Source: a virus | Direction: 5' to 3' (one strand) | Length of the DNA: 64,000 nucleotides | Virus record (IMG/VR): IMGVR_UViG_3300047472_000155 | Location: 102,839-166,838 of that record | In this document: positions 4,255-31,544 of the stretch, in pieces | How positions within the stretch are numbered: the stretch's first letter is position 1 | Layout: each line of letters starts with the position of its first letter | Notes under the pieces: model-generated | Seen by the model: only the letters and a program-made list of their open reading frames with translations | Told to the model about the DNA's origin: nothing | Database searches by the model: none | Made by a program: the position numbers and the translations under genes

Positions 4255-4298
4255 GATGCCTACTATTCGTAAATACTGATAGTAGGCATTGCTTTTTA
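4255..4298 (+). terminator. Intrinsic terminator
   Basis: ATGCCTACTATT/GATAGTAGGCAT stem followed by GCTTTTT. Confidence 0.7.
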
Positions 4299-4301
4299 TC
4301 C

Positions 4302-4330
4302 TTGACAAATGAAAGATAAAGTGATATACT
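4302..4330 (+). promoter_or_regulatory. SigmaA-type promoter with conserved spacer element
   Basis: TTGACAAATGAAAGATAAAGTGATATACT. Confidence 0.85.
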
Positions 4331-4372
4331 ATATACATTAAGAGCCGGATAGAAATTACAGGGAGGTAATAA

Positions 4373-4681
4373 ATGGATAAACCATCTTTTATTGTAGGAG
4401 AACCATATTTAGATTATTTTGATGTTATGAAATATTTACAAGAAAAATACGAGTTCACGCATAGCGAAAAAAGACATTTTTGGAAATGGATTTTAGATGA
4501 TTCAATGAATGATGTTCATAATGGATGTTTTATTTATCTTCCCATATATAATTTTCATGAAAGATATTACATTCAAGACATTGAAAAATTTAACGATGAT
4601 CATCCAATTGTTGTTGAAATTATCAACATGTTATGGAACGAATATGGCAAAGAAGATTTGAAGTTTTATGTGTCTTGGTAA
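4373..4681 (+). CDS. Hypothetical protein
   Basis: ORF with GGAGG RBS. Confidence 0.75.
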   Translation: MDKPSFIVGEPYLDYFDVMKYLQEKYEFTHSEKRHFWKWILDDSMNDVHNGCFIYLPIYNFHERYYIQDIEKFNDDHPIVVEIINMLWNEYGKEDLKFYVSW

Positions 4682-24837: not shown

Positions 24838-25194
24838 ATGTTGATAGCTTATAATTCTCTTACAGGAAATGTAAGAAGATTTGTTAATAAGTTGGAAATG
24901 GATATGATAGAAGTTAATCCAACACTAGAGATCAAAGAGAAGTTTGTATTGGTCACTTTTACTGTAGGATTTGGCAAGGTGTCCAATAAGGTTATAGACT
25001 TCTTGAATTACAAAGATAATTACAAGAACATGATTGGTGTGTCATCAAGTGGGAACCGAAATTGGGGAGACAATTTTGCAAAAGCATCCGATATAATTTC
25101 TCAATTATATGATGTGCCAATTGTATCAAAGTTTGAATTAGCAGGAATACAAAAAGATGTAGATTATTTTAAGAAAAGGATTGATGAATTGTGA
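24838..25194 (+). CDS. nrdI: Class Ib RNR flavodoxin NrdI
   Basis: SLTGNVRRFV, SSGNRNWG..F, KFELAG. Confidence 0.95.
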   Translation: MLIAYNSLTGNVRRFVNKLEMDMIEVNPTLEIKEKFVLVTFTVGFGKVSNKVIDFLNYKDNYKNMIGVSSSGNRNWGDNFAKASDIISQLYDVPIVSKFELAGIQKDVDYFKKRIDEL

Positions 25195-27269
25195 GTAATT
25201 ATATCGAATTAAATAATGAGGTCTATACACGAAAAGATGGATTTTTCCAATTAGACAAAGACTTGGAAGCAGTGAAAGCTTTTGAAAAAGAAGTTAAAAA
25301 GAAATTAGTAAAATTTAATAGCATTGATGAAAAAGTGCATTGGTTAGTTGACAATGACTATTATTACAATGTATATGAACAATACACAGAAGATCAAGTA
25401 ATTGAAATATTTAGAACCGCATATGAGTTCAATTTTAAATTTCAATCTTTTATGGCTATTTCAAAATTTTATAATGACTATGCCATGAAAACAAATGACA
25501 AGAAAAAGTACTTAGAACACTATGAGGATAGATGTTCAATTGTCTCCTTAAATTTAGCAAGAGGCAACTTTGAAAAAGCAAAGAAGCTTATTGTAGAGCT
25601 TATGGAACAAACATATCAACCAGCAACACCTACATTCCTCAATGCAGGTAAAAGCAGACGTGGTGAGATGGTTTCATGCTTCTTGCTTGAGATGGGAGAT
25701 AGTTTAAATTCTATTGGCAATGTAATTAATACGTCTATGCATTTAAGTAAGTCAGGTGGAGGCGTAGCAATCAATTTGTCTAAATTACGTTCACGTGGTG
25801 AATCAATTAAAGGCGTAGAAGGTGCTGCCAAAGGTGTAATGCCTGTTTTGAAGTTGCTAGAAGACGCATTTAGCTATGCTGATCAAATGGGACAACGTAA
25901 GGGAGCAGGCGCAGCATATTACAACATCTTTGGATGGGACGTTATTGAATTCCTTGATACTAAGAAGATTAATTCCGATGAAAAATCACGTATTCAATCA
26001 TTGTCCATTGGATTAATTGTTCCACATAAATTCTTTGAACTTGCAAAAGAAGATAAAGACTTGCACATGTTTGCACCATACTCAGTATTTAAAGAATATG
26101 GTATTCAACTTGATGATATGGATATGGATAAAATGTACGATGATCTTGTAAATAACAATAATGTAAAGAGTAAAAAAATCAATGCACGTGATATGCTTTC
26201 TAAAATTGCTGTCACTCAAATGGAATCTGGATACCCCTATCTTATGTTTAAAACAAATGCTAATAAGCTCCATGCACTTAAGAACATAGGAGATGTAAAG
26301 CAATCAAATCTTTGTACCGAAATATTCCAACTTGCAGAAGAAACAATTATCAATGATTATGGTGTAGGAGATGTTATTAACAGAGATATAAACTGTAATC
26401 TTGGTTCACTTAATATTTACAATGTAATGAGAAAGAAGAATTTTAAGGACATCATTCACGTTGCAATGGATGCATTAACTGCCGTAAGTGATATGACAAG
26501 CATTATCAATGCTCCAACAGTAAGAAAAGCAAATGATGAACTTCATGCTGTTGGTTTGGGTGCTATGAATCTTCATGGATATCTTACTAAGAATAAGATT
26601 GCATACGAAAGTAAAGAAGCTTTAGATTTTGCAAATACATTCTTCATGATGGTTAATTATTACTCCATTCAAGCAAGCGTAGAGATTGCGAAAGAAAAGG
26701 GTGCATTTAAAGATTTTGATAAGTCTGAATATGCTAATGGCAATTACTTTGTCAATTACATTGGAAAGAGTTATGAACCAAAGCTCGACAAGGTTAAAGT
26801 ATTGTTTGAAGGAATTCAAATTCCAACTATTGAAGATTGGAAACAACTTAAAGAAGATGTGAGAAATCATGGAATGTATCATGCATATAGACTTGCCATT
26901 GCTCCAACTCAATCTATTAGCTATGTACAAAATGCCACAAGCTCTGTGATGCCTATTGTTGATGCAATTGAAATTAGAACATATGCCAATTCAACAACAT
27001 ATTATCCAATGCCTTTTCTTGCACCAGACAATATGTTCTTCTATAAGAGTGCATATAACATTAATCAGTATAAGCTAATTGATATGATCGCTACCATTCA
27101 GGAGCATGTAGATCAAGGCATTAGTACAATCTTATTTATTGATAGCAACACATCTACAAGAGAACTTGGAAGATATTATGTTTATGCTGAACTCAAAGGG
27201 TTAAAGAGTTTGTATTACACAAGAACAAAAAAGCTTGATATTTCAGAATGCACATCGTGCAGCGTGTAA
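25191..27269 (+). CDS. nrdE: Class Ib ribonucleotide reductase alpha subunit
   Basis: [38 protein letters not shown]-terminal CTSC. Confidence 0.96.
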
Positions 27270-27286
27270 AAAGGAGAAAAAATAAA

Positions 27287-28255
27287 ATGACAAAAATATA
27301 TTCAGCAGTTAATTGGAATAATCAAGAAGATGATTTTTCTCTAATGTTTTGGCAACAAAATGTAAGCCAATTCTGGATTGATACAGAAATTCCACTTTCA
27401 AGTGACAAAATGGTTTGGGCTGAGATGGAAACATCTCAGCAAGAAACCTATAAACGTGTTTTGGGTGGACTCACCTTGCTTGATACGGTGCAAGGAACTA
27501 TAGGTATGCCTAAGATTGCTGAGATGGTTGACAACCTTCACCGCAAAGCTGTGTTGAGTTTTATGGGCATGATGGAGAATATTCATGCAAAATCTTACTC
27601 TTCAATATTCTCAACACTTGCAACAACAGAGGAAATTAATGAAATATTTGAATGGGTTGAAGAAAATAAATATTTGCAATACAAAGCTAAGGTAGTTGAA
27701 AGTTATTATAAGGATGTTAAGACAAACAAAGATTTGTACATGGCTATGGTGGCAAGTGTATTCCTAGAGACATTCTTGTTTTATAGTGGATTCTTTTATC
27801 CGTTATATCTTGCAGGACAAGGCAAGATGACATCAAGTGGAGAGATCATTAACTTAATCATTCGTGATGAATCTATTCATGGTGTATTTGTGGGATTGCT
27901 TGCACAAGAGCTATACAAAGATTTAAGCGCAACCGAAAAAAAGCAAGTCAACAAGGAGATTGAAGAGTTACTTGAAGACTTGTATAAAAATGAATTACTT
28001 TACACCGAAGAAGTTTATCATGTCATTGGACTAGAGGATGAAGTTAAAAAATTCCTTCGATACAATGCTAATAAGGCTATGATGAACCTTGGGAAAGAGC
28101 CATTTTTCCCTGACGAAGAGATTAATCCGATTGTCTTGAATGGCATGAAAACAGATACGAAGACGCATGACTTCTTTAGTTTAAAAGGTTCATCGTATGT
28201 AAAAGCTACAAATGTTGAGAAGATGACTGATGAAGATTTTGAATTTGACATTTAA
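27287..28255 (+). CDS. nrdF: Class Ib ribonucleotide reductase beta subunit
   Basis: [38 protein letters not shown]. Confidence 0.96.
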
Positions 28256-28286
28256 TTTATAGTCGGGATTAATTACTGAGAAACAC

Positions 28287-28315
28287 TTGACAAATAACAG
28301 ATAAAATGATATAAT
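28287..28315 (+). promoter_or_regulatory. SigmaA-type promoter with conserved spacer element
   Basis: TTGACAAATAACAGATAAAATGATATAAT. Confidence 0.9.
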
Positions 28316-28333
28316 AGACAATGTAAGCAAGAG

Positions 28334-28467
28334 AGATACGAACATCTAACTTGGCAATCGTGAAACTGTTAAAGGCGGCATGTAGTGATGTGGCATATTT
28401 TCTAGTACGATTGATTGAAGGTTCACAACCACAACAAGTAAGATATTCGATCTAGTAAATCACATCA
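28334..28467 (+). ncRNA. Candidate structured RNA (leader of dut), family unknown
   Basis: Closing stem 28334-28353/28435-28453, inner CAATCGT/ACGATTG stem and three small hairpins, in a ~165-nt untranslated leader. Confidence 0.55.
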
Positions 28468-28487
28468 AACATTGGAGGAAATGAGAC

Positions 28488-29162
28488 ATGGCAAAACGAT
28501 TCTACAAACAAGGTGAACGTATTTGGATTAAAGCATTAAACAAAACAGGAAGAGTGGTAACACTTGATATTCCTAATCTTAGCGCAGCAATTTCTTATTA
28601 TGAAGATGGAGACTTGAAGACACGCAACATGAAATTCATGGAGATTGATAAGTATAAAGATCAAAATGCTAAAGCTTCTAAGAGTGTTGTAAAAAATGGA
28701 AAAGTAGATAATTTGAATCTACAAGAAAGTAAGAAAACTATTCTTGTCAAGTATTTTAAAGAATATTTGCGTCCAATTGGCAAAATTGAAATTGGAGATT
28801 GGATTGATCTTCGTTCAGCACAAAACATTTCTTACAAAGCAGGAGACTTTATTAAGCTTCCTTTAGGAGTCGCCATGTCGCTTCCTGCTGGATATGAAGC
28901 ACATGTTGCTCCACGTGGAAGTACATTCAAAAACTTTGGAGTTATTCAAGTGAATTCTCCAGGTGTTGTAGATGAATCTTATCGTGGAAACGAAGACGAA
29001 TGGTTTATGCCATTGTATGCATTGCGTGATGGAAACATTACATTTAATGACCGCATTTGCCAATTCCGTATTGTCAAGAAGATGGAAGAAGTTAATATTG
29101 TTACAGTTAAAGAGTTGAAATCTCCTAATCGTGGCGGATTTGGTAGCACTGGTAAGAAATAA
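28488..29162 (+). CDS. dut: Trimeric dUTPase with extra N-terminal ~80-aa domain
   Basis: [36 protein letters not shown] (Bacillus YosS/YncF type). Confidence 0.93.
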
Positions 29163-29249
29163 AGAAATAAGATAAATGTAAGATAAAATGAAAGGGTAAG
29201 GATAATGTTAAAGTTATTTCTTACCCTTTACTATTTAAGGAGGGCGAGC

Positions 29250-29558
29250 ATGTCAAGCATTAAATTAACTAGTAAGCAAATGGAAAAAATTCTTGAAGAA
29301 TATGATATTGACGAATTTGAATATGAACATGTATATCAATCCGAATGGACTGATGAAGGGAAATATGCTTCTTCCGATGTTATTTTCAAAAAAGATGGCA
29401 AGTATTACATGTTCAATGCAACAAGATATGGGAATCACTACAGAGGATATGATCTTGAATTTTATGACAATGAAGCAATTGAAGTAGAGAAAGTAAAAGT
29501 TGTTAAGGAAATTTGGCTTCCAAAAATTACGAATGGAGAGATGAAAAATAATGGCTAA
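29250..29558 (+). CDS. Hypothetical protein
   Basis: AAGGAGG RBS before ATG 29250. Confidence 0.75.
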   Translation: MSSIKLTSKQMEKILEEYDIDEFEYEHVYQSEWTDEGKYASSDVIFKKDGKYYMFNATRYGNHYRGYDLEFYDNEAIEVEKVKVVKEIWLPKITNGEMKNNG

Positions 29559-30216
29559 TTATACGTATGGGAATGTATCAACAGGAACTCTGTTGCACTT
29601 TATCAAGACTTCACCTAACAATATTACACTTAAAGCGATTGGCAAAAATGTTGTCAATACTGATGAATACGGTGTGAATGGCGGTTTTTTCTATGGGTCA
29701 GATCAAATTTCGCTTGCGGTTAACAATGACGTTCCAGTGAGAGGCGTTTTAGGCGGGTATGGATCAGGTTGGTTTAATGAGAAATATTCTAGGGGTACGT
29801 TAGTTTGGGATAAAGCAGCGGGTAAATATAGCGTTCAAGTTGTATCGGCAGCTAGTGAACTTGATGTTTTAGATAGATCGAAGTACTGGGCGCAAGGCGG
29901 TATTAGCATGAGTCTTCAAGATGATATTAATTGGAAGGCAATTGCCACAGAACAGAATATGCCTAATATGACAGGTAAAACATCACGTACAGCATTGGTA
30001 TGGAACACAGGTTTTAACCTTTGGCTTATTGTTACGGAGACACTTTGCACAGCAGAACAATTTAGACTTGCCATTAAGAAGAATATCGGAAGTGGAACAC
30101 TTGTGGATGGTATTTTCTTAGATGGTGGAGGCTCAAGTCAAATGAGATGCTTAGAAAAAAGCGTTAATGGTGACGGAAGACAAGTAGTACAAATGGTTGC
30201 TTTGACCAATAAATAA
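29551..30216 (+). CDS. Phosphodiester glycosidase (NAGPA/DUF2233-like)
   Basis: GVNGGFF, SRTAL, FLDGGGSSQM. Confidence 0.75.
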   Translation: MANYTYGNVSTGTLLHFIKTSPNNITLKAIGKNVVNTDEYGVNGGFFYGSDQISLAVNNDVPVRGVLGGYGSGWFNEKYSRGTLVWDKAAGKYSVQVVSAASELDVLDRSKYWAQGGISMSLQDDINWKAIATEQNMPNMTGKTSRTALVWNTGFNLWLIVTETLCTAEQFRLAIKKNIGSGTLVDGIFLDGGGSSQMRCLEKSVNGDGRQVVQMVALTNK

Positions 30217-30225
30217 GGAGGAATA

Positions 30226-30522
30226 TTGATGGACGCTTATTCACTTGCGGAAGATATTTTGTATAGAGAGTTAGAGACAAGATTAGATCAAGTAATTAAT
30301 GGAGAACAAAATTCAATTGAAATTAAATTTTTATATGCTAATGAAGTAGCAACATTCCTAAAAAACAAGTATGATGCTCATGTAGAAACATCTGACATGG
30401 ATACTAATGGATGGCAGTATGATTATTGGATTCCAGTTTATATCAATGATGAAAAGTATAATTTAATGGGTTCAGGTTACTATGGAGACATGGAATTTGT
30501 CAAAGAAGAGGATGAAGAATAA
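30226..30522 (+). CDS. Hypothetical protein
   Basis: AAGGAGG RBS. Confidence 0.75.
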   Translation: MMDAYSLAEDILYRELETRLDQVINGEQNSIEIKFLYANEVATFLKNKYDAHVETSDMDTNGWQYDYWIPVYINDEKYNLMGSGYYGDMEFVKEEDEE

Positions 30523-31279: not shown

Positions 31280-31544
31280 TGTTGTATTTAAAGATAAGTG
31301 GGATGAAGAATCATTTGATGGGACCAATGAAACTGTGATTGAAGTTCAGTATGATAAATTTACACAAAAACCAATATATATTGAACTTAAAGATATTATA
31401 GAAGATGAAATCAATGATGTCATTGGCATCGACTTGACAAAAGAACAAGCAGTTGAACTTGCATATGCATTGCTTAGAATTAATTGGGATTTAGAGAAGA
31501 CCATTGGAGTTGACCTTGCAAAAGAAAAGGAAGCTGATAAATAA
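31251..31544 (+). CDS. Hypothetical protein
   Basis: ORF in operon; start uncertain. Confidence 0.65.
   Translation: MSKMENKEFNVVFKDKWDEESFDGTNETVIEVQYDKFTQKPIYIELKDIIEDEINDVIGIDLTKEQAVELAYALLRINWDLEKTIGVDLAKEKEADK

Follow-up and report, generated by a model that had tools for sequence, protein, structure and literature searches.

What kind of RNA stands at the head of the dUTPase message of an uncultured phage, and what might it do there? The question is raised by the window, the whole 64,000-nucleotide stretch of DNA analysed here, which is the final 64 kb of a 166.8-kb (~167-kb) IMG/VR phage record. No cultured phage is close to this one, with only the ribonucleotide reductase genes aligning, at ~65-69% DNA identity, to Bacillus and Staphylococcus phages. 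Within the window, nrdF and the dUTPase gene (dut) are separated by a gap of 232 nt, in which a first-pass annotation had noticed an unusually long leader and postulated an undescribed multi-stem RNA with a possible pseudoknot or switch. The operon genes are those of nucleotide metabolism, with nrdEF upstream, dut and thioredoxin downstream, and thyA and DHFR also downstream in relatives; nrdE and nrdF overlap directly in the window. The genes and signals that frame the leader are the following.

25191-27269: nrdE
27248-28255: nrdF
28287-28315, + strand: sigma-A-type promoter, TTGACA, 17-nt spacer and TGaTATAAT (extended -10), a 12/12 consensus match, with the TG
28321-28333, + strand: predicted transcript start and purine-rich single-stranded 5' tail, 6-8 nt past the -10 box
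28488-29162, + strand: dUTPase gene, 224 aa, with an N-terminal domain of ~57 aa (putative KOW/SH3-like barrel) and a Pfam dUTPase match over residues 107-222

The 29-mer promoter, spacer included, occurs in 8 copies in the window with <=3 mismatches, against 0 expected (399, 15160, 21746, 28287, 36475 and 51326 on the + strand; 55368 and 62392 on the - strand), and its family has ~23 near-identical members in the whole phage genome. The 17-nt spacer, AATRAAAGATAAAATGR, is conserved along with the hexamers. Because the 29-mer recurs with its spacer, we regard it as a genuine phage promoter family read by the main sigma factor of the host. Judging from the position of the -10 box, transcription would start near 28321-28323, and the dUTPase leader would then be ~165-166 nt long, against mostly <75 nt for the other 22 family promoters. 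None of the sequencing runs listed as containing the sequence is an RNA run, which speaks neither for nor against expression. The leader was thus rightly called unusually long (~166 nt among 23 promoters of the same family).

How is this leader folded? Its core (28334-28453, + strand, ~120 nt) is a three-way junction composed of a closing helix P1, a long arm P2 and a mini-hairpin P3. The minimum-free-energy (MFE) fold, computed on 28324-28500, consists of P1, P2a, a large internal loop, the P2b hairpin and P3, and the parts of the leader are listed here from 5' to 3'.

28334-28353, + strand: 5' arm of P1 in the MFE fold, partner of 28435-28453
28355-28362, + strand: 5' arm of P2a, CAAUCGUG, partner of 28406-28413
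28363-28374, + strand: conserved internal loop, 5' strand AAAYUGUUAAAG, with UGAAA and GUUAAA invariant in 6/6 sequences including distant L105
28375-28394, + strand: P2b hairpin with a 6-nt apical loop GUAGUG, of which bases 28385-28387 are in the loop-loop contact
28395-28405, + strand: conserved internal loop, 3' strand AUAUUUUCUAG, with UUUCUAG(UA) invariant in 6/6
28406-28413, + strand: 3' arm of P2a in the MFE fold, UACGAUUG
28414-28419, + strand: junction J2/3, AUUGAA, unpaired and almost invariant
28420-28430, + strand: P3 mini-hairpin in the MFE fold, GGUU-CAC-AACC, its loop 28424-28426 pairing with 28385-28387
28431-28434, + strand: junction J3/1, ACAA, unpaired and conserved
28435-28453, + strand: 3' arm of P1, partner of 28334-28353
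28454-28487, + strand: A-rich linker (20 nt, mostly unstructured), Shine-Dalgarno sequence (SD) GGAGG at 28474-28478 and spacer to the ATG, containing CACATCA at 28461-28467

Every string and pairing on which the first-pass annotation had built its proposal was found in its place, including CAATCGT/ACGATTG (28355-28361/28407-28413) and GGTT-cac-AACC (28420-28430). The MFE fold contains the outer helix, the CAATCGTG/TACGATTG helix, one G-U-containing hairpin (where two such mini hairpins had been drawn) and the GGTT/AACC hairpin, which stands as proposed. The outer pairing, described as having a bulge and two mismatches, is P1, which in the window consists of 17 bp interrupted by one bulged A and two mismatches, and is kept in the homologues described below at a length of 17-18 bp throughout, with 18 uninterrupted pairs in L105. 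P1 could stack on the 8-bp P2a, and the distance from P1 to the SD is 19-20 nt both in the window and in L105. For single sequences the folding energy is unexceptional, with z scores of -1.6 (window) and -0.6 (nearest relative).

Five other metagenomic phage contigs (L009, L100, L101, L102 and L105) and one partial contig carry the same element in the same position. The first relative found, L009, is a 170-kb IMG/VR contig with a dUTPase 81% identical to that of the window; its leader core is 90-92% identical, against ~80-85% in flanking coding DNA, and its 16 leader differences break 0 predicted pairs and include three pairs altered on both sides. Further contigs were reached through protein relatives of the dUTPase. 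L100, L101 and L102 are close relatives (L102 being 5'-truncated), and L105 is distant, with a dUTPase 62% identical and a leader scoring 38.9 bits (E = 1e-9) with a covariance model built from the first two sequences only. Contigs of other runs gave a variant of L100 and the partial, clearly different copy. In all homologues the element sits between nrdF and a dUTPase with the N-terminal domain, and complete copies share the order nrdF, family promoter, RNA, 19-20-nt A-rich linker, AUUGGAGGAAA and dut, the promoter being found upstream of the RNA in L009, L100, L101 and L105. The element is single-copy in each genome and always accompanies dut.

The element appears to be narrowly distributed, belonging on the contigs retrieved to a small clade of large phages that are uncultured and have promoters of the Bacillota type. 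Blastn, covariance-model and motif scans found no second copy in the phage's own genome, only repeats of the promoter; blastn of the window and L105 leaders against 50,697 phage records gave no match; covariance-model searches of 96 loci around phage nrdF/dut genes gave nothing past the six sequences; and a related-locus search from the L105 dUTPase gave nothing useful. When IMG/VR, JGI metagenome contigs and the genomes of 185,579 species were scanned with DNA patterns, only the contig of L009 was a real match; the species' genomes gave one chance hit and no bacterial homologue. Other candidates (L108-L120, L124 and L125) were rejected as chance pattern matches, L124 and L125 being apparently coding sequence. 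Relatives at a greater distance, which share this arrangement of promoter, linker and dut, have a plain hairpin in the leader, of 18 bp in L103 and 10-11 bp in L107 and L126, or none (L104); the promoter ahead of the dut leader in these four is of the same family. The hairpins of L107 (2434-2459) and L126 (2435-2458) pair an SD-like arm (GAGGAAG / GGGAAG) with an anti-SD-like arm (CUUCCUC / CUUCCC), and are a different solution at the position of the three-way junction.

Is it the fold that has been conserved? The homologue set is small (six sequences from ~five lineages, four of them >90% identical), and in its covariance-model alignment 97.8% of cells are paired and 11/32 pairs are compensated, a score reached by 0/500 shuffles. 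Since an alignment fitted to a model leans towards structure, the count was repeated on a plain MAFFT alignment with the window's own MFE structure, which gave 92.7% of cells paired and 11/35 pairs compensated, again with 0/500 shuffles reaching the score; sliding the partners by 1-3 columns on the same alignment left 29-49% paired. Folded one by one, the five full leaders each have this same architecture as their MFE structure. The comparison of homologous leaders that the first-pass annotation had recommended as a check, with 11 pairs compensated, therefore bears out its multi-stem RNA, conserved on the + strand with covariation in six sequences.

The changes are spread over the helices. Compensatory changes affect 7/17 pairs of P1 in the sequence-only alignment, and in L105 the sequence of P1 is wholly different from that of the window with its pairing retained. 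In P2a, C28355-G28413 becomes U-A in three sequences and CG/CG becomes ACA/UGU in L105; in P2b, U28381-A28388 becomes C-G in L009, and the stem in the partial contig of run X5 is fully re-coded (GGGU/ACUC; U-A for C-G) with pairing kept. GAAA/TTTC is invariant in 6/6 sequences. Several pairs are G-U in every sequence, such as G28362-U28406 of P2a (6/6), and would be C-A on the opposite strand, so that the conserved RNA is that of the + strand. Between the window and L105, P1 has been replaced entirely in sequence, with UGAAA, GUUAAA, GGCA, UUUCUAGUA, AUUGAUUGAA and ACA invariant. A re-coded helix with invariant unpaired bases is the pattern of a specific binding fold and not of a generic hairpin.

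Two further pairings and a reading frame were considered and rejected. UUUUCU (28399-28404) can pair with AGGAAA of the SD in the window and in L105, an association of U-rich with A-rich sequence that is weaker in L102 and absent from the ensemble, and the pairing of CUAG (28402-28405) with CUAGUAAA (28451-28458) is weakened by a G-to-A change in L009, L100, L101 and L102. An ORF of 34 aa (28351-28455, with a TTG start and no SD) loses its frame in the relatives, whose leader indels are of 1, 2 and 4 nt and whose substitutions have no third-position bias. As the indels are not multiples of three and the ORF is lost, the leader is not coding.

The pseudoknot suspected by the first-pass annotation is likely, but as a contact between the loops of P2b and P3 and not as the pairing of TGATGTG with CACATCA. 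GUG, which ends the P2b loop (28385-28387), pairs with CAC, the loop of P3 (28424-28426), and in L009 the changes of U28386 to C and of A28425 to G are mutually complementary. Where the window has GUG/CAC, L009 and both X5 contigs have GCG/CGC and L105 has GCU/GGC; in this loop-loop contact 18/18 cells are paired, 2/3 pairs covary and 4/500 shuffles reach the score. This covariation suggests a pseudoknot between the two loops, of 3 bp in few lineages. A hairpin loop of 3 nt, as in P3, is sterically awkward for pairing, and P3 may therefore be shorter, with a larger loop, than in the MFE fold.

The proposed switch does not hold up. TGATGTG (28386-28392) is indeed the exact complement of CACATCA (28461-28467), 6 nt before GGAGG (28474-28478), and was suggested to alternate between the P2b hairpin and CACATCA by the ribosome-binding site, toggling translation, but we consider this extremely improbable. 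In the window, L100, L101 and L102 every base of the two 7-mers is matched, yet these four sequences are identical at both sites and hence uninformative. In both informative relatives the pairing is broken, with 5/7 and two mismatches in L009 and no counterpart in L105, and a 7-mer complement between tail and body arises in 18% of shuffled tails, which is within chance expectation. What compensates the L009 changes in TGATGTG is, instead, the P2b stem itself together with the P3 loop. More generally, no terminator-like site was found in 27000-30500, including after nrdF, no SD-sequestering helix is conserved among the leaders, and the SD is predicted to be mostly unpaired in 4/5 full leaders (less so in L009). 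With no terminator and an SD predicted to be open, no expression platform is visible.

To which known RNA might the element be related? Rfam 15 at gathering thresholds gave 0 hits in the whole window, and relaxing the limit to E = 10 for the window, L105 and L009 brought chance hits only, of 13-16 bits, to eukaryotic or plant-virus families; ARAGORN found no tRNA or tmRNA in the window. The element thus matches no Rfam family, tRNA or known ribozyme, and the claim of an undescribed structured RNA in the dUTPase leader, for which an Rfam hit would have removed the novelty, stands. A tRNA-like reading was rejected, as a cloverleaf has a 5-bp T stem and a T loop with U54 and A58, whereas GGUUCACAACC allows just a 2-bp stem with a 7-nt loop and a C at the A58 position, and L105 is without the motif. 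The likeness to a type III hammerhead is one of layout: three helices of which the open one is the closing stem, the other two in contact through their loops, and 1, 6 and 4 nt in the junction strands. The catalytic core, however, is absent from the element, whose junction strands read G, AUUGAA and ACAA where a hammerhead has H, CUGANGA and GAAA, and there is no Rfam hammerhead hit at E = 10. For the junction and internal loop, sarcin-ricin and k-turn motifs were also considered and rejected, as the core bases do not fit. We found nothing relevant described in the literature on dUTPase leaders or riboswitches in phages, and very few phage-specific structured leaders are known, none of them for dUTPase or the phage dNTP-synthesis operon. 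Structured leaders with conserved junctions and tertiary contacts serve metabolite or protein sensing in cells, and occasionally in phages. The element makes up a new RNA family, though its general kind is familiar, and its comparative support is good for its size.

What, then, might this RNA do for the dut operon? The reading that we favour, to which we give an even chance, makes it a cis-acting part of the leader that serves the dut operon mRNA as a platform for binding or as a processing module. The host-type promoter (sigma-A, extended -10) would transcribe the element, which has no terminator of its own, as the 5' leader of that mRNA. P1 would form a stable stalk with its base ~35 nt before the AUG, a distance that corresponds to the 5' edge of the 30S ribosome footprint. 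The junction and internal loop would offer a specific binding surface for a trans-acting factor (a protein or small molecule), and binding of this factor, or cleavage within P1, would set the translation or lifetime of the dut mRNA. The binding partner and the regulatory outcome are what we infer in this scheme; the retention of unpaired bases and a tertiary contact while P1 was re-coded is what marks a specific binding surface in three dimensions. Against the scheme stand the missing expression platform, the unexceptional single-sequence folding energy, the few sequences (six, from ~five lineages) and the 17-18-bp P1, which is much longer than the P1 that switches in known riboswitches and so speaks against a helix gated by a ligand.

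A further difficulty for this binding platform is that distant relatives have a plain 10-18-bp hairpin or nothing at the same spot, so that the generic need is possibly just for a stable helix. P1, coaxial with P2, might then be solely an RNase III substrate or a barrier to RNase J1/Y, with the job of freeing the dut message from nrdEF read-through or of stabilising it, and with no ligand or regulator; we regard this as unlikely, though well short of negligible. A P1 of 17-18 bp in every homologue speaks for it, as do the hairpins where the three-way junction is missing (18 bp in L103, 10-11 bp in L107/L126), the 12-30-bp near-perfect hairpins in other early leaders of the phage, and the fact that read-through RNA, with no terminator after nrdF, would include the element. 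Hairpins in the early mRNAs of Bacillus phage SP82 and coliphage T7 are processed, and the element resembles them in lying just past a strong early host-type promoter, in having a long imperfect helix and in being replaced by plain long hairpins at its position in related phages. A site of this kind would be an extended double-stranded helix of ~two turns in an early transcript. The RNase III of Bacillus subtilis, which recognises certain dsRNA structures, cuts the early mRNA of SP82, and 5'-proximal structure governs the action of RNase J1/Y in Bacillus (PMC4838370). Unlike those hairpins, the element is branched, the bases of its junction and internal loop are invariant and its tertiary contact covaries, features that would be superfluous for cleavage and yet were kept where P1 was re-coded. 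Its helix also begins 13 nt from the predicted 5' end, which is too far for classic 5'-end protection. A related idea is that the junction is cut from the leader, for example in P1, and binds a host or phage protein or another RNA in trans, the dut mRNA being only its carrier. The compact, self-contained fold with a long closing stem, like the processing stalks that release stable RNAs, the conserved loops and tertiary contact, and the strong promoter of its own would all suit such a small RNA. We nevertheless think it quite improbable, as the element has no terminator or other defined 3' end, keeps a fixed distance from the dut SD in every case and occurs nowhere else, and has conserved loops for which no complementary target was found in the phage genome.

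The setting also invites comparison with metabolite riboswitches, the junction binding dUTP, dUMP, dTTP, a 2'-deoxynucleoside or folate and altering expression of an operon that is wholly concerned with nucleotide metabolism. A conserved fold with covariation, as expected of a riboswitch aptamer, is what the element has. Aptamers of the purine and 2'-dG riboswitch type are three-way junctions with parallel arms tied by a loop-loop contact and with conserved junction bases; the element likewise has a closing P1, two arms, conserved unpaired junction bases and loops tied by Watson-Crick pairs, and it too is found in the 5' leader of nucleotide-metabolism genes. It differs from them in having no sequence or covariance-model match, in being known only from phages, in a P1 of 17-18 bp in place of a few pairs and a P3 of 4 bp with a 3-nt loop, and in having its conserved bases mostly in the P2 internal loop, without a terminator or SD-sequestering platform. 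Considering that neither usual kind of expression platform is present, that P1 is too long for ligand dependence, that there is no bacterial homologue (185,579 species' genomes) and no Rfam match at E = 10, and that the element is restricted to one small phage clade, we deem such a riboswitch very improbable. A broader variant is that the element represents a phage-specific class of ligand- or protein-sensing RNA, either an aptamer for a deoxynucleotide or folate metabolite or an operator for the KOW-like domain of the dUTPase. This we hold doubtful; if true, it would mean that the phage can adjust dNTP synthesis, through this operon, to conditions in the cell it has infected without a terminator or SD sequestration.

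The protein side of this idea lies in the dUTPase itself. In an AF2 model, residues 1-62 form five strands with a pLDDT of 84.7, and the best fold matches of the N-terminal domain (residues 1-57, window 28488-28660) are to the NusG KOW and Tudor folds, with TM scores of 0.75-0.80 and weak E-values of 3e-3 to 5e-2. The model is thus suggestive of a five-stranded barrel of the KOW/SH3/Tudor type. The domain is followed by a variable Lys-rich linker and is common to ~20 metagenomic dUTPases, some of them without the leader RNA. Autogenous translational operators, such as the leader pseudoknot of phage T4 gene 32 and the thrS operator of Escherichia coli, offer a parallel: a folded element upstream, then an unstructured A/U-rich tract with the SD, the base of the helix at the edge of the ribosome footprint and, here, a dUTPase bearing an additional KOW/SH3-like barrel. 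A structured element at a fixed distance from an accessible SD, as such operators require, is present, with 19-20 nt between P1 and the SD and a linker predicted to be open. The fold is nonetheless unrelated to those of the two operators. Since the modelled domain is of a KOW/SH3-like kind, self-regulation of the dUTPase through its leader RNA is conceivable, but since the domain is also present in relatives without the element, the link is only a lead.

What would follow from each outcome? Should the element bind a ligand or the extra domain of the dUTPase, it would be a new class of regulatory RNA and would give the KOW-like domain a purpose; should it be a processing or stability module only, it would be a modest addition to what is known of early-mRNA processing in phages. 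The element itself is short and well defined, and its natural compensatory variation is enough for clean mutants to be designed.

Several minor observations concern the same transcripts. A conserved ATGTAA (28321-28326) opens the predicted 5' tail and is kept in L009, L100, L101, L105 and L103 despite differing flanks, lying exactly 5 nt past the -10 box in the window, L009, L100, L101, L103 (35-40) and L105 (2341-2346); it also follows one other family promoter in the same genome (near 41860, - strand). A start at the A of ATGTAA would give an mRNA that opens with a leaderless start-stop mini-ORF, which could load a ribosome at the 5' end. Three other early leaders, past the promoters at 28210(-), 39067(-) and 127568(+) of the genome (the last at ~24730 of the window), have 12-30-bp near-perfect hairpins 15-20 nt past the predicted start, which may be RNase III or stability signals, or attenuators. 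Outside the window, at ~31280-31390 of the genome (- strand), the 118-nt "leader" of promoter 31397(-) has a tRNA-like T arm, GTGAGTTCGATTCTCAC, and is probably part of a phage tRNA cluster rather than an mRNA leader. Lastly, an ORF of 245 aa with an I-HmuI/NUMOD-like endonuclease domain (L009:1082-1819) is inserted between nrdE and nrdF in the nearest relative, and in L100 dut is followed downstream by an additional HNH ORF (4296-4658); the two have the look of free-standing homing endonucleases that move about the nucleotide-metabolism cluster.
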